Virus genome (UHGV): UHGV-2150205
DNA: 10,955 bases
Source: a virus
Reading direction: 5' to 3' (one strand)
Part shown: positions 823 to 7,035 of the stretch, piece by piece
Layout: each line of letters starts with the position of its first letter
Numbering within the stretch: position 1 is the first letter of the stretch
The notes under the pieces: generated by a model
The model's database searches: none
What the model was told of the DNA's origin: nothing
The model's input: only the letters and a program-made list of their open reading frames with translations
Made by a program: the position numbers and the translations under genes

Positions 823-898
823 AATGACTCCTGTGGATTGATCCAGTCTTTCTACATCAGGCCTCGAAGAATTCGCCGTTCTTCGGGGCTTTTTCTTT
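817..898 (+). ncRNA. oop: oop-like short antisense RNA, predicted. An extended -10 (TGtCATAAT, 817-825) would start a transcript near 832 that ends at the intrinsic terminator at 861-898, antisense to the 3' end of cII.
   Basis: The plus strand carries an 11-bp stem (861-871 pairing with 879-889, loop ttcgccg) followed by tttttctttt, opposite the last codons of cII. This is the arrangement of lambda oop and its terminator. The promoter assignment is by eye only. Confidence 0.45.
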
Positions 899-1144
899 TG
901 TCAGCATTCTGGCTACTTGCTTAGCCAGTTCCGCCAACTCCTCGTCTTCAACACCCCATTCCAGCACAGCCAGAAGCATGGCCATCTTTGGGATAAAGCT
1001 GTCTTTCCATCGCGAAATTTGCGATTCATTAATCCCTAACGCGTCGGCAACCTTTCGCTGACCACGTACAGCAATTCGATTCAGGATGTTAAGCAACGCA
1101 CTCTCGATTCGTAGAGCCTCGTTGCGTTTGTTTGCACGAACCAT
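857..1144 (-). CDS. cII: CII transcriptional activator, 95 aa ([95 protein letters not shown]).
   Basis: Strong similarity to lambda CII as recalled ([19 protein letters not shown]..., [17 protein letters not shown]). The start was moved to the internal ATG at 1144, which has an AAGGA RBS and matches the lambda cII start context; the track ORF begins 29 codons upstream in frame. Confidence 0.9.
861..898 (+). terminator. Rho-independent terminator on the plus strand, overlapping the cII 3' end in antisense (tO-like).
   Basis: gcctcgaagaa / ttcttcggggc stem with a 7-nt loop, then a T-tract at 890-898. Confidence 0.65.
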
Positions 1145-1162
1145 ATGTAAGTATTTCCTTAA
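1122..1162 (+). promoter_or_regulatory. pRE-like CII-activated promoter: TTGC-N6-TTGC (1122-1125 and 1132-1135) embedded in the 5' end of cII on the opposite strand, directed toward cI.
   Basis: The plus strand reads cgTTGCgtttgtTTGCacgaaccatatgtaagtatttcc, which matches the lambda pRE/CII-binding region as I remember it. Confidence 0.6.
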
Positions 1163-1175
1163 CAAATAAGAAGTT

Positions 1176-1196
1176 ATGCGCATCAACTTATGCGCG
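1176..1196 (-). terminator. tR1-like hairpin between nutR and cII (GCGCAT-loop-ATGCGC in cro-sense); probably a weak or Rho-dependent pause or termination site.
   Basis: A 6-bp self-complementary stem is visible, but there is no strong U-tract. The call rests on position by analogy to lambda tR1. Confidence 0.3.
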
Positions 1197-1202
1197 TTGT
1201 AT

Positions 1203-1245
1203 TCCCGCATTTCGGCGGGAATGAGGACCATGACTGTTAAAGAGC
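1203..1245 (-). promoter_or_regulatory. nutR: boxA (GCTCTTTAACA, plus-strand coordinates 1235-1245) and boxB hairpin (TCCCGC-CGAAAT-GCGGGA, 1203-1220), just downstream of the cro stop.
   Basis: boxA matches the rrn-type consensus. boxB is a 6-bp stem with a GAAA-containing loop. The identical boxA and boxB recur on the plus strand upstream of N (nutL). Confidence 0.7.
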
Positions 1246-1252
1246 GGTGTTA

Positions 1253-1447
1253 CTATTTGTTTTTCTTGTTGCTTGGGAAAGGACGAACTTCCTCTCCAAT
1301 CACACTGCCATCAGGCTTTACCGTAACCATAATGTTACGGCCTGCCAGAATGGCCTTGCTGATAGCGCACTGGATTACACCAAAGTCACTGGCTGCTTTA
1401 GCCTGTCCATGGATTTTGGCGTAATCGGCAAGTGTCATTCGAATCAT
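1253..1447 (-). CDS. cro: Cro repressor, 64 aa from the ATG at 1447 ([64 protein letters not shown]).
   Basis: Similar to lambda Cro as recalled (ITLKDYA, SAINKAI, ADGSV, EEVKPFPSNKK). GGAG lies 7 nt upstream of the ATG at 1447; the track ORF starts two codons earlier at a GTG. Confidence 0.85.
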
Positions 1448-1478
1448 ATGCACTCTCCGTTATTAACCATGAACAAAG

Positions 1479-1553: not shown

Positions 1554-2270
1554 ATGGAAAATAAAAAATCACTGACGACAGAACAGCTCGAAGACGCTAA
1601 GCGGCTTAAGGCTTTGTATGAGTCAAAAAAGAAAGAATTGGGAATAACCCAATACTCAATCGCTGATGAACTGGGTATCACCCAAGGAGCGGTAGGGCAT
1701 TATCTTAATGGCAGAAACGCGCTAAACGTTGAGGTCGCATCTGGTTTTGCACGATTGTTGCAAGTCTCAATTGCTGATTTTAGCCAGTCAATTGCTGCCA
1801 AGGTTGCAGAACAGGCAGAAAGCCTTAAGAGCGATGCCAACGTAAGGTATGCAGGGGAATACAGAGCAGGAAAGAGGTATCCGGTGTTAAGCAGTATCCA
1901 GGCTGGCTCGTGGTGTGAAGCATGCGAACCATACACCATTAAAGACATAGATGTTTGGCTTGAGTCTGACGCGCATATTCAAGGTAATGCGTTCTGGCTT
2001 AAAGTAGAAGGTGATTCAATGACGGCACCGGTTGGGTTAAGCATTCCAGAGGGAACATTCGTTCTTTTCGATACCGGAAGGGAGGCGATCAACGGCAGCT
2101 TGGTCATAGCAAAACTTTCTGACTCTAACGAAGCAACATTCAAGAAGCTGATAATCGACGGCGGAAATAAATACCTCAAGGGACTTAATCCTGCATGGCC
2201 TCTCGTGCCAATCAATGGAAACTGCAAGATTATAGGCGTTGCAATTGAGACAAAACTAAGGCTGGTTTGA
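1554..2270 (+). CDS. cI: CI-type prophage repressor, 238 aa, with an N-terminal HTH and a C-terminal S24 (LexA-like) autopeptidase domain.
   Basis: Close to lambda CI at both ends as recalled (KKxLTxEQLEDAxRLKAxYExKKxELG, NALN, FWLxVEGxSMTAP, TFKKLI). A candidate Ala-Gly cleavage site (RYAGEY) and the catalytic Ser (GDSM) and Lys (FKKL) are present. Confidence 0.95.
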   Translation: MENKKSLTTEQLEDAKRLKALYESKKKELGITQYSIADELGITQGAVGHYLNGRNALNVEVASGFARLLQVSIADFSQSIAAKVAEQAESLKSDANVRYAGEYRAGKRYPVLSSIQAGSWCEACEPYTIKDIDVWLESDAHIQGNAFWLKVEGDSMTAPVGLSIPEGTFVLFDTGREAINGSLVIAKLSDSNEATFKKLIIDGGNKYLKGLNPAWPLVPINGNCKIIGVAIETKLRLV

Positions 2271-3087: not shown

Positions 3088-3207
3088 ATGTTAGACATCA
3101 TGACCAACCCAATTCTCGGTGGTTTAGTTACCACATTCGCCATCTGCTTCGGTTTCACTATCTGGTCTGAAGTAGATGACTGGATGTGGGAACGCAAAAA
3201 CAAATAA
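3088..3207 (+). CDS. Leader micro-ORF, 39 aa (MLDIMTNPILGGLVTTFAICFGFTIWSEVDDWMWERKNK), a predicted single-pass hydrophobic peptide between nutL and N.
   Basis: GAGGA RBS 7-8 nt before the ATG at 3088. The hydrophobic core is ILGGLVTTFAICFGFTIW. It is below the track cutoff and coding status is unproven. Confidence 0.4.
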   Translation: MLDIMTNPILGGLVTTFAICFGFTIWSEVDDWMWERKNK

Positions 3208-3247
3208 TCATCGACACACAAGGATGTGTACCTTCCCGGAGGTCAAC

Positions 3248-3547
3248 ATGACAGTAGTCATTACATATCTGGCTGACGATAACGCCAGAAATCGCCGCAG
3301 AGCACGCAGACAGGCTCAACGTGAACAGGCAATGCAAGAGCAGCGACTGGCGCGAAAAATTGCGCTAAAGCTCTCTGGTTGCGTCAGAGCAGATAAAGCA
3401 GCATCACTCGGAAGCCTTCGCTGCAAGAAGGCAGAAGAAGTTGAGCGTAAACAGAATCGTATTTACTACCGCAAGCCACGCAGTGAAATGGGTGTGACTT
3501 GTGTTGGTCGCCAGAAAATGAAATTAGGCAGCAAACCACTTATTTGA
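3248..3547 (+). CDS. N: N-type transcription antiterminator, 99 aa, with an arginine-rich motif near the N-terminus (NARNRRRARRQAQ) and a lambda N-like C-terminus (YRKPRSEMGVTCVGRQKMKLGSKPLI).
   Basis: GGAGG RBS 6 nt before the ATG at 3248. The N-terminal MTVVITY resembles P22 gp24 and the C-terminus resembles lambda N (SKPGERGITCSGRQKIKGKSIPLI), both from memory. The track ORF (3176 start) extends upstream into the micro-ORF. Confidence 0.85.
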   Translation: MTVVITYLADDNARNRRRARRQAQREQAMQEQRLARKIALKLSGCVRADKAASLGSLRCKKAEEVERKQNRIYYRKPRSEMGVTCVGRQKMKLGSKPLI

Positions 3548-4331: not shown

Positions 4332-4426
4332 GCACTGTGTATTCATTCCAACGAGTGAATACACGGAGCAATGTCGCTCGTAACTAAACAGGAGCCGACT
4401 TGTTCTGATTATTGGAAATCTTCTTT

Positions 4427-4450
4427 GCCCTCCAGTGTGAGGGCCTTTTT
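4427..4450 (+). terminator. Rho-independent terminator (GCCCTC-cagtgt-GAGGGC followed by CTTTTTAT), tL-like and presumably read through under N antitermination.
   Basis: Perfect 6-bp GC-rich stem followed by a T-tract. Confidence 0.65.
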
Positions 4451-4516
4451 ATATGCATACCAATAACGCTTCACTCGAGGCGTTTTCGTTATGCAATCAA
4501 ACAGAAGGAGCATCCT

Positions 4517-4687
4517 ATGCAACAGTTCGCTATTGCAGGGGCGGCATCGGTTCGCCCTTTCAACCCGATTTTATCGGTACAGCATTCACGAAAAAATATT
4601 TTAACCGGAGCAGACTTTAAACAACCAAGAATGAAAAGTTTGCTCGAAAAGCTTTGGGATATTTTGAAACAACAAGGCCGTCCATGA
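4517..4687 (+). CDS. cIII: CIII-like small protein, 56 aa (MQQFAIAGAASVRPFNPILSVQHSRKNILTGADFKQPRMKSLLEKLWDILKQQGRP); a possible FtsH (HflB) inhibitor.
   Basis: AAGGAG RBS 6 nt before the ATG at 4517. It resembles lambda CIII as recalled (N-terminal MQYAIAG and C-terminal SLLExxxxxLxDILxQxG). The track ORF (4412 start) is longer; the internal start was chosen on the RBS. Confidence 0.45.
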   Translation: MQQFAIAGAASVRPFNPILSVQHSRKNILTGADFKQPRMKSLLEKLWDILKQQGRP

Positions 4688-4794
4688 GTTTTACAGATAA
4701 CTGGTCAGACGAAGAATTCATTCGTCATATGAAAGAATTAATCGGTAACGAAGGAGATATTCATGTCACTTGCAACCACAGTGAAGGAGAGTAA
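4684..4794 (+). CDS. Small ORF, 36 aa (MSFTDNWSDEEFIRHMKELIGNEGDIHVTCNHSEGE), with an ATGA overlap on the cIII-like gene. It is in the position of kil, but no similarity is claimed.
   Basis: ATGA start/stop overlap and AAGG 5 nt upstream. Below the track cutoff. Confidence 0.3.
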   Translation: MSFTDNWSDEEFIRHMKELIGNEGDIHVTCNHSEGE

Positions 4795-4941
4795 GTTACA
4801 GAGACGCATGTACACGCAGAAAGCTCTCTGGTATCGCCATAATGGCGACCGCGAAGGAATGCGGGTATGCCTTAATTTGTCCCGAGTCGAAGTATTAAAT
4901 CAGCGTTATTTCCTTGGGCCGTGTCCATTCTGAGGTGAATT

Positions 4942-5649
4942 ATGGATTTGAATAAATTCGATGAGCCATTCAGCCCTGAAGATATCGAATGGCGAATACA
5001 GCAAAGCGGTAAAACACGCGATGGAAAGGTGTGGGCTATGGTGCTGGCTTATGTCACGAACAGGGCAATCATGAAACGCCTGGACGATGTTTGCGGCAAA
5101 GCAGGATGGCGCAATGAATACCGCGATATTCCCAACAACGGAGGCGTTGAATGCGGCATATCAATCAGGATTGATTCCGAATGGGTAACCAAATGGGATG
5201 CTGCTGAAAACACGCAGGTAGAAGCCGTAAAAGGTGGTCGTTCCGGTGCAATGAAGCGCGCTGCCGTTCAGTGGGGAATCGGTCGGTATCTGTATAACCT
5301 TGAGGAAGGTTTTGCACAAACATCTCTCGATAAAAAGCAGGGATGGCACAGGGCAAAACTCAAGGATGGAACAGGATTTTACTGGCTCCCTCCATCGCTG
5401 CCGGGATGGGCAATCCCAGCATCAGATAACAAACCATCACCAGAAAATACCAACCAGAAATCTCCATCGGTTGACTGCGAACAAATCCTGAAAGACTTCA
5501 GCGATTATGCGTCAACAGAAACTGACAAGAAAAAACTCATCGAGCGTTATCAGCGTGACTGGCAATTAATGGCTGGCAACGAGGAGGCGCAGGCTAAATG
5601 CGTTCAGGTAATGAACATCAGAGTTAACGAACTAAAACAGGCGGCATAA
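4942..5649 (+). CDS. Rad52-family single-strand annealing protein (Sak-like recombinase), 235 aa.
   Basis: Motifs typical of Rad52/Sak proteins (GKAGW...GGVECGISI and KGGRSGAMKRAAVQWGIGRYLY). It occupies the bet position in the pL operon and is followed immediately by ssb. Confidence 0.8.
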   Translation: MDLNKFDEPFSPEDIEWRIQQSGKTRDGKVWAMVLAYVTNRAIMKRLDDVCGKAGWRNEYRDIPNNGGVECGISIRIDSEWVTKWDAAENTQVEAVKGGRSGAMKRAAVQWGIGRYLYNLEEGFAQTSLDKKQGWHRAKLKDGTGFYWLPPSLPGWAIPASDNKPSPENTNQKSPSVDCEQILKDFSDYASTETDKKKLIERYQRDWQLMAGNEEAQAKCVQVMNIRVNELKQAA

Positions 5650-6165
5650 ATGGCAAGCAGAGGCGTAAATAAGGTGATCATTATTGGTCGCCTTGGGCAT
5701 GATCCAGAAATCAGATATTCACCATCAGGAACGGCATTTGCAAACCTTACCGTTGCTACGTCAGAACAATGGCGTGATAAGAAAACTGGAGAGCAAAAGG
5801 AGCAGACGGAGTGGCACCGCGTGGTAATGAGCGGGAAACTGGCAGAAATTGCCAGCGAATATCTGCGAAAAGGCTCTGAGGTTTATCTTGAAGGCAAATT
5901 GCGGACAAGAAAATGGCAGGATCAAAGCGGACAGGATCGGTTCACTACCGAAGTCATCGTGGGCGTTGGTGGAACCATGCAAATGCTTGGTGGCAAGCAA
6001 GGAGGCAATGAACAGTCTTCACCTCAGCGAAATAATGGTCAGCAACAAAGACAGCAACCTCAGCAGCAGGGAAATCACAGCGAACCACCTATGGATTTTG
6101 ACGACGATATCCCCTTTGCACCAGTAACTCTCCCCTTCCCTCGTCACGCTATTCACGCAATTTAA
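5650..6165 (+). CDS. ssb: Single-stranded DNA-binding protein, 171 aa. The OB-fold N-terminus is near-identical to E. coli SSB; the C-terminus reads DFDDDIPF followed by 15 extra residues ([15 protein letters not shown]).
   Basis: [23 protein letters not shown]...TEWHRVV...LRTRKW.DQSGQDR.TTEV matches E. coli SSB, with a Gln/Gly-rich linker and acidic tip. The start follows the upstream stop directly. Confidence 0.95.
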
Positions 6166-6173
6166 GGACTTAC

Positions 6174-6722
6174 ATGAATCACTTGATGGTTGACCTTGAA
6201 ACAATGGGCAACGGGCCATACGCGCCAGTTATTTCTATTGGGGCGGTATTCTTTGACCCGAATACCGGAGAAACAGGAGAAGAGTTCTCGGTAAATATCT
6301 CGCTTGAGTCATCAATGCGATATCGGGCGCGTCCTGACGCTTCAACGATTTTATGGTGGCTGGAACAGAGTGAAGAAGCCAGAAAATCGCTAACCAGCAA
6401 CACTCAGGAGCTTTCAACGGCTCTTTCATGGTTATCTGAATTCATCATAAAGAACGCTAACCACAAATTCGTTCAGGTTTGGGGGAATGGAGCATCATTT
6501 GACTGCGTTATTCTCCGAAACAGTTATTCGCTGACAGGGCAGCCAGTTCCATGGCAGTGGTGGAATGACCGCGACGTAAGAACAATCGTCGAGCTTGGAA
6601 AGGTAATAGGATTCGACCCTAAGCGAGATATGCCATTCAAAGGAACTCGCCACAACGCTCTTGATGATGCCATTCACCAAGCCAAATACGTTTCAGCGAT
6701 CTGGAAAAAGTTAGCTAAATAA
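6174..6722 (+). CDS. DEDDh-type (DnaQ-like) 3'-5' exonuclease, 182 aa.
   Basis: Exo I-like motif VDLETMG, central motif VWGNGASFD and Exo III-like motif HNALDDAIHQA. AAGGA RBS before the ATG at 6174. Confidence 0.75.
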   Translation: MNHLMVDLETMGNGPYAPVISIGAVFFDPNTGETGEEFSVNISLESSMRYRARPDASTILWWLEQSEEARKSLTSNTQELSTALSWLSEFIIKNANHKFVQVWGNGASFDCVILRNSYSLTGQPVPWQWWNDRDVRTIVELGKVIGFDPKRDMPFKGTRHNALDDAIHQAKYVSAIWKKLAK

Positions 6723-6738
6723 TCAACAGGAGAAAACC

Positions 6739-7035
6739 ATGCCAGCGCCTCTGTATGGTGCGGATGACCCGCGCCGCTGTTCCGGCAATTCCGTATCGGA
6801 GGTGCTGGATAAATTCAGAAAAAACTACGATCGGATAATGTCGCTACCGCAGGAAACGAAAGAGGAAAAGGAATTTCGCCACTGTATATGGCTTGCAGAG
6901 AAAGAAGAACGCGAGCGAATTTACCAGACATCAATCCGACCATTCCGCAAAGCCACATATACCCACTTCCCTGAATATATCGACCCGCGCCTGCGTAATT
7001 ACCGCTCACGCTATGGCACTATCAGTAATGACTGA
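6739..7035 (+). CDS. Hypothetical protein, 98 aa.
   Basis: AGGAG RBS before the ATG at 6739; open frame in the operon. Confidence 0.6.
   Translation: MPAPLYGADDPRRCSGNSVSEVLDKFRKNYDRIMSLPQETKEEKEFRHCIWLAEKEERERIYQTSIRPFRKATYTHFPEYIDPRLRNYRSRYGTISND

Follow-up and report, generated by a model that had tools for sequence, protein, structure and literature searches.

A DexA-like DEDDh exonuclease in a P22-type recombination module of an Escherichia coli prophage: a possible accessory role at 3' ends

What could a 3'-5' exonuclease contribute to a phage recombination module built around strand annealing? The question is raised by UHGV virus genome UHGV-2150205, a 10,955-nucleotide stretch of DNA (hereafter, the window) that is the early-left (PL) operon and immunity region of a lambdoid/P22-like Escherichia coli prophage. 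Here, genes for a Rad52-like single-strand annealing protein (SSAP) and a single-stranded DNA-binding protein (SSB) are followed by one for a DEDDh exonuclease (exo) and one for the RecBCD modifier Abc2. Phage annealing systems underlie recombineering and are a main driver of phage mosaicism. A 3'-5' exonuclease within them runs against intuition, since annealing recombination is usually reduced by host enzymes of that polarity. An earlier note on this DNA, made from the sequence alone, had singled out the pairing of the annealing protein and SSB with a DEDDh enzyme. The pairing is real but not new, as the arrangement SSAP-SSB-exonuclease-Abc2 has already been published (PMC2629481, PMC12315714). 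What the 3'-5' enzyme does, which the note had called not obvious from sequence, remains a genuine and legitimate question. Our preferred answer, which we regard as an even call, is that the window carries a P22-type Rec module in which the DEDDh enzyme performs accessory 3'-end processing and is not the resection nuclease.

The authors of the epsilon34 genome paper (2008) described the nuclease as 'unusual in this context' (PMC2629481). Such enzymes have also been said to 'curiously, usually inhibit homologous recombination', and the DnaQ-like gene of epsilon34 was independently judged 'very likely a legitimate Rec module member'; the same study assigns 25 phages to an 'ES18 functional type' comprising an anti-RecBCD function, an SSB, a nuclease and an annealing protein, and mentions sporadic DnaQ-type genes near int (PMC12315714). 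Since the arrangement is already known, interest now centres on what the exonuclease does and on comparative facts. The present analysis adds an exactly delimited exo cassette, adjacency to SSAP and SSB genes that persists through partner change, sister clades linked to int, and an exchange of nuclease domains on a RecE scaffold.

We first consider the identity of the enzyme. The 182-residue exonuclease matches PF16473, 'Rv2179c-like 3'-5' exoribonuclease', over the entire profile (positions 1-177 of 177; E=2.9e-73, 245.7 bits against a cut-off of 27), and its DEDDh motifs are intact (D7-L-E9, F109-D110 and H160-x4-D165). Asp7, Glu9, Asp110, His160 and Asp165 align with the catalytic residues of T4 DexA and are invariant or nearly so in 20 homologues. 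In sequence and profile searches of the PDB, T4 DexA (8KEL/8KEN) was the sole match (E=1e-13 to 1e-16). An AlphaFold2 model (pLDDT 92.4, pTM 0.89) gave the same answer when searched with Foldseek: T4 DexA was closest (E=2e-12, TM 0.79), followed at E of about 1e-5 by RNase T, oligoribonuclease/REXO2, Cap18 and RNase AS (Rv2179c). The top PDB fold matches, all at probability 1.00, share the RNase H-like alpha/beta fold. Rv2179c itself, suggested as nearest relative by the Pfam name, was rejected, as the PDB searches gave only DexA and RNase AS ranked far lower in the fold search. The subfamily placement that the earlier note had called for thus points to PF16473, with T4 DexA as the nearest solved relative. 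The predicted 3'-5' polarity holds up, given that family, modelled fold and catalytic residues all fit this characterised 3'-5' DNA exonuclease, and the fold of the model is DexA-like rather than one foreign to DEDDh enzymes. Because the nearest characterised relative is DexA, we take the likely substrate to be DNA. NCBIfam holds no model for the exonuclease, SSAP or Abc2. A 29%-identical homologue in the Klebsiella P2-like phage ST16-OXA48phi5.4 (locus L007, 3001-3567), annotated as a '3'-5' exoribonuclease', lacks the DxE, FD and His motifs and is, judging from these residues, probably catalytically dead.

T4 DexA is a 3'-5' exonuclease that prefers single-stranded DNA (ssDNA) over double-stranded DNA (dsDNA); it takes part both in the scavenging of host DNA and in the homing of introns by recombination (PMC12153337). 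The window enzyme resembles it in having identical DEDDh residues, and DexA is its closest solved structure. The two proteins nevertheless share only about 27-31% identity; the window exonuclease lacks two surface insertions of DexA and its tetramer residues S87/D90, Asp169 is not conserved, and DexA belongs to a lytic phage in which no SSAP gene adjoins it.

The relationship to DexA admits a defensive role of the 'HREX' type, in which the prophage enzyme, like E. coli EcD, would degrade the 5-hydroxymethylcytosine-modified DNA of superinfecting T-even phages. EcD, a DexA homologue, protects against T4 even at leaky expression (PMC12153337), and the equivalent of DexA Trp152 is kept in the window enzyme (W130), with the tetramer residue D90 replaced by T82. 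The equivalent of D169, however, aligns to V144 in a gapped region, and exo begins 8 nt behind ssb in a repressed PL operon. Scans for a promoter or terminator belonging to exo itself gave no more sites than shuffled sequence, promoter-like sites being even fewer. PADLOC returned only weak, generic DEDDh matches. We therefore consider a defence function very improbable. The window protein is also not the published EcD, whose primers encode MIDTE.../...TIPETY, compared to MNHLMVDLE.../...KKLAK in the window.

If the exonuclease degrades 3' ends, what resects the 5' strand? The earlier note had treated the DEDDh enzyme as the only nuclease of the module. This is correct in that tblastn finds none of lambda Exo, Beta and Gam or Rac RecE and RecT in the window (E>0.5), such that the lambda Red/RecET-type combination of an SSAP with a 5'-3' dsDNA exonuclease (YqaJ/lambda Exo or the RecE PD-(D/E)XK type) is absent; it overlooked, however, the adjoining Abc2. 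Window Abc2 shares 92% identity with its P22 counterpart and retains the PpiB-site proline P68, a residue that sits in the PpiB active site (PMC9836394). The P22 protein has been studied biochemically and structurally and binds RecC (PMC5928155, PMC9836394). In the model of Murphy (2000), which both papers summarise, RecBCD modified by Abc2 would become a nuclease of the 5' strand that acts independently of Chi and supplies the annealing protein with ssDNA. Phages encoding Abc2 typically lack an exonuclease of their own (PMC9836394), so the absence of a 5'-3' exonuclease is expected in a P22-type module and presents no paradox. The window has the defining features of such a module, namely an Abc2 orthologue with P68, an early-left SSAP and no phage 5'-3' exonuclease. 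By analogy with P22, window Abc2 would hijack RecBCD, the 'missing' 5'-3' exonuclease could be accounted for within the window by Abc2 plus host RecBCD, and recombination by the module is predicted to depend on RecBCD.

The P22 genes (arf, erf, abc1, abc2) lie at the corresponding place in their operon, flanked by cIII/kil and the ea genes. The annealing proteins of P22 and the window have the Erf C-terminal domain in common, and neither system encodes a 5'-3' exonuclease, both being thought to use hijacked RecBCD. Unlike in P22, the N-terminal domain of the window SSAP is Rad52-like, not Erf, and the abc1 slot is filled by ssb and the DEDDh exonuclease. Lambda Red (Exo-Beta-Gam) and Rac RecET also share the operon position and the purpose, single-strand annealing recombination, but they bring a 5'-3' dsDNA exonuclease of their own, and lambda blocks RecBCD with Gam. 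The window nuclease has the opposite predicted polarity, and in the scheme proposed here RecBCD would be co-opted rather than blocked.

In this scheme, the module genes would be co-transcribed from PL after induction or infection. Abc2 would bind RecC and convert RecBCD into a Chi-independent helicase and 5'-strand nuclease, yielding 3' ssDNA, which phage SSB and the annealing protein would coat and anneal to a complementary strand, in the service of genome circularisation or recombination-dependent replication. The DEDDh enzyme would supply an optional third activity by trimming 3' single-stranded ends, a role for which the part played by T4 DexA in intron homing is the precedent. Two forms of trimming can be envisaged. 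The exonuclease may remove non-homologous 3' flaps, allowing the annealed ends to prime synthesis; alternatively, it may blunt 3' tails so that RecBCD-Abc2 can load. Both the 3'-5' activity on DNA and the flap-trimming or blunting role are predictions. If the enzyme does trim 3' heterologies or blunt ends for RecBCD-Abc2, this would explain how such phages manage to recombine diverged sequences; including it could also make recombineering cassettes work better on dsDNA whose ends are imperfect.

A functional link between exo and the recombination genes is suggested by their conserved adjacency. Scanning GTDB with one genome per species gave 80 loci, the flanks of which were searched by tblastn with reference recombination proteins. 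The window exonuclease falls in a clade (at least 67% identity) of 11 species-level loci plus the window, ranging from Escherichia to Photorhabdus and Providencia. Wherever upstream sequence is available (10 of these loci), an SSB gene lies at most 90 nt upstream of exo and is itself preceded by an annealing-protein gene. The annealing protein may be Rad52-like, Erf, Sak4 or a member of a second Sak4-related family (phrog_1366), and the SSB is of either the bacterial or the HK620 type; in Sak4/SSB-2 modules of Kluyvera, Pantoea and Photorhabdus, for instance, an exonuclease orthologue occupies the same slot. That the position is kept while both partners are replaced by non-homologous analogues is our chief argument for a functional link of this clade with recombination proteins. 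Abc2 was rejected as a universal partner of the exonuclease: of the 12 clade members, only 5 have it (phrog_656) downstream, and the rest carry unrelated small open reading frames (ORFs) without a recognisable family.

Some more distant homologues (48-56% identity) also adjoin an SSB gene, in Aeromonas (L076/L077), Tolumonas (L085) and Photorhabdus kayaii (L078); the Aeromonas order is reversed, with exo preceding ssb by 24 nt. A Photorhabdus heterorhabditis prophage (L022, 2008-2694; also L038) encodes a predicted PF10108 (DNA_pol_B_exo2) 3'-5' exonuclease just upstream of Sak4, placing two 3'-5' exonuclease-like genes in one recombination module.

The same adjacency bears on a rival explanation, nucleotide scavenging, in which ssDNA or oligonucleotides, for example from unwinding by RecBCD-Abc2, would be converted to deoxynucleoside monophosphates (dNMPs) for phage replication, the position in the Rec module being incidental. 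Scavenging is the classical and a documented role of DexA (PMC12153337), and the gene is distributed like a mobile cassette, turning up in numerous phage types that have no annealing protein; in one prophage type, exo lies two genes (about 1.4 kb) downstream of a dNMP phosphatase-like gene. Scavenging leaves unexplained, however, why one clade keeps strict SSAP-SSB adjacency through changes of partner family. Moreover, degradation of the host chromosome is not known from temperate lambdoid phages. On balance, scavenging appears unlikely.

Although adjacency is conserved in the clade, exo behaves as an optional cassette. The slot is empty in HK75, where the abc2 ribosome-binding site comes directly after the stop codon of ssb; in the window and in mEp235, exo is inserted exactly between these two elements, with flanks that can be aligned base for base with HK75. 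In Sf6, the slot is filled by an HNH endonuclease gene. Homologues of the exonuclease also occur in phages without annealing proteins, including PY54, P2-like phages, Jedunavirus and T4-likes. Among 5426 complete E. coli genomes surveyed for these alleles, 144 contain a contiguous ssb-exo-abc2 block.

Several points weigh against accessory 3'-end processing and should be taken together. HK75, with SSAP, SSB and Abc2 but no exo, shows that the exonuclease is dispensable for this module type, and in the allele survey exo was found in only 173 of the genomes, compared to 402 for SSAP and 1099 for Abc2. Sister clades (54-63% identity) adjoin xis/int instead, at a distance of about 250-330 nt upstream of int, and neither an SSB nor an annealing protein was detected within 6 kb. 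The clades themselves come from a neighbour-joining tree without bootstrap values. In general, host ssDNA exonucleases of 3'-5' polarity act against annealing-type recombination (PMC12315714), and a xonA mutation is reported to enhance RecET assembly (PMC13048471). Finally, our literature search found no genetic or biochemical work on the window exonuclease protein or any near homologue.

A further setting of the DEDDh domain concerns the relationship between the two nuclease polarities. Many E. coli prophages carry, between dicB/ydfD and xis/int, a gene for an 813-residue 'exonuclease' (locus L112, 4600-7041; a frameshifted copy in L005, 1088-3555). This protein is 59% identical to RecE over RecE residues 50-591, but has a DEDDh domain (PF16473, residues 632-803) where RecE has its PD-(D/E)XK 5'-3' domain (PF12684, 615-850). 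On a single scaffold, therefore, one nuclease polarity has been swapped for the other. Using a 1041-nt query that covers linker plus DEDDh domain, and counting matches at 80% coverage or more, we found this segment in 4072 of the 5426 E. coli genomes (about 75%), with a median of 2 copies. No RecT-like gene adjoins the fusion.

This exchange lends some substance to the idea that the DEDDh enzyme is itself the resection nuclease, working in reverse polarity: it would chew the 3' strands of duplex ends, leaving 5' tails to be paired by SSB and the annealing protein. Annealing as such does not require a particular polarity, and the 3'-5' exonuclease of poxvirus DNA polymerase, together with the I3 SSB, reportedly resects in this way. 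The DEDDh domain sits exactly at the position of the 5'-3' PD-(D/E)XK nuclease on the RecE scaffold, and in 7 of the 12 clade members no Abc2 (phrog_656) or other nuclease was detected beside SSAP-SSB-exo. In the window, by contrast, Abc2-RecBCD can supply resection. T4 DexA favours ssDNA over dsDNA (PMC12153337), the module type works without exo in HK75 and HK620, and the RecE-scaffold fusions have no adjoining annealing protein. Reverse-polarity resection is accordingly a distinctly unlikely explanation for the window; it is more plausible in the seven clade members lacking Abc2 and in the RecE-scaffold fusion.

More broadly, DexA-like DEDDh exonucleases could be a general third component of temperate-phage annealing systems, working with SSB on 3' ends or by reverse-polarity resection and interchangeable with the RecE 5'-3' domain. 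We offer this generalisation tentatively and think it rather doubtful. Were it true, phage recombination in most E. coli strains would routinely include 3'-end processing, as a step on which selection can act.

We also analysed the annealing protein and SSB with which the exonuclease would cooperate. The N-terminal domain of the SSAP (residues 4-136) matches PF04098 Rad52_Rad22 (E=7e-26, 91.4 bits against a cut-off of 20.3), and the protein matches phrog_1097 (E=6.5e-130). Its C-terminal 79 residues (157-235; nt 5410-5649) share 63% identity with the C-terminal domain of P22 Erf. On these alignments, the SSAP is a chimera of a Rad52-like N-terminal and an Erf-type C-terminal domain, a domain swap already described by the epsilon34 authors (PMC2629481). 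The Erf-like C-terminal domain may fit shared partners, either Abc2-RecBCD or SSB. Within the SSAP gene, 33 nt (gene positions 148-180; window 5089-5121) are 100% identical to an annotated CRISPR of E. coli JNE151685 (NZ_AP027258.1), and a natural spacer thus appears to target this gene.

The existence of this spacer is among the points that favour a counter-defence or host-manipulation role, in which the enzyme would clear 3' ssDNA or fragments that trigger RecA/SOS, CRISPR adaptation or DNA-sensing defence while RecBCD is being manipulated. Exo is co-located with Abc2, a RecBCD manipulator, and defence systems that sense RecBCD antagonism have been described (PMC12407980 and a bioRxiv preprint on OLD). 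The idea is nonetheless entirely contextual, with no specific family link, and a literature search on DnaQ-like anti-defence gave nothing relevant; nor did searches on Rv2179c with phage, PF16473 or ydfE. We judge such a role highly unlikely.

The SSB has a well-supported OB fold (PF00436, E=3.7e-38; TIGR00621, 183 bits against a cut-off of 54). Its acidic DFDDDIPF tip, however, is internal: DDDIPF occupies residues 151-156 of 171 and is followed by 15 extra residues, whereas all SSB family models end at residue 156 (IPF), so that the acidic motif is not at the extreme C-terminus. The region concerned (window 6106-6165, residues 153-171) has counterparts at three other loci (L001, 5421-5927; L003, 3908-4414; L002, 4859-5821). 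In Sf6, the HNH endonuclease gene begins directly after an IPF-stop, and the HNH protein itself ends with the same tail, over 14 residues. Given this shared tail, the SSB extension could be an ancestral feature or have been left behind when an HNH gene was gained or lost. Masking of the C-terminal Phe might alter the choice of SSB partners.

The closest relatives of the module are found in phages mEp235, mEpX2, epsilon34, g341c and CurroJimenez_Bas106, which have the identical four-gene order; in the first four, DNA identity over the module is 86-92%. In epsilon34 (genes 33-36), mEp235 and mEpX2, the four genes, their order and their spacing are all equal to those of the window, with no essential difference. 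The exonuclease protein of Bas106 is 100% identical to that of the window, but Bas106 and a metagenomic locus (L030) carry an extra HNH endonuclease gene between ssb and exo. HK620 (hkaM, sak4, ssb, abc2) shares the architecture of annealing protein, cognate SSB and Abc2, and its SSB stimulates annealing in vivo (PMC5928155). HK620 differs in lacking the exonuclease, and neither its annealing protein nor its SSB is related by sequence to that of the window.

The features of the window are collected in Table 1 and confirm the cII-cro-cI-N...cIII operon context. The three ORFs reported by the earlier note fit its span, 4942-6722, exactly, and their identities are borne out by Pfam matches far beyond chance, with support from PHROGs. 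As a module boundary the span is incomplete, leaving out Abc2 on the 3' side and two small HK97-like ORFs on the 5' side (4654-4933). Packing is tight: the SSAP stop touches the ssb start, and 16 nt separate the exo stop from abc2.

Table 1. Annotated features of the window, with coordinates and strand.
Feature	Position	Strand	Remarks
cII-like	857-1231	-	
cro-like	1253-1453	-	
LexA/S24-type repressor	1554-2270	+	faces cII-like and cro-like
N-like antiterminator	3176-3547	+	
cIII	inside 4412-4687	+	
HK97 gp42.1-type small ORF	4654-4794	+	phrog_2123 (label 'recombinase'), E=2e-27
HK97 gp42-type small ORF	4763-4933	+	phrog_1723, E=9e-36; conserved neighbour 5' of SSAP
SSAP, Rad52-like annealing protein	4942-5649	+	PF04098, phrog_1097
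SSB, bacterial type	5650-6165	+	PF00436
DEDDh 3'-5' exonuclease, DexA/Rv2179c-like family	6174-6722	+	PF16473
Abc2, RecC-binding RecBCD modifier	6739-7035	+	PF11043, E=1.6e-61

The HK97 gp42.1-type ORF occupies the position of P22 arf and is syntenic with mEp235, Sf6 and HK75; its true start is likely the Met at about 4684. In the immunity region, a 129-codon ORF (2267-2656) overlaps the repressor stop codon, which makes joint transcription with cI in the lysogen probable. Its sole match is phrog_6534, a family of no known function, with no PADLOC or Pfam match, and it occupies a position typical of prophage exclusion genes of the rex/sieB type.

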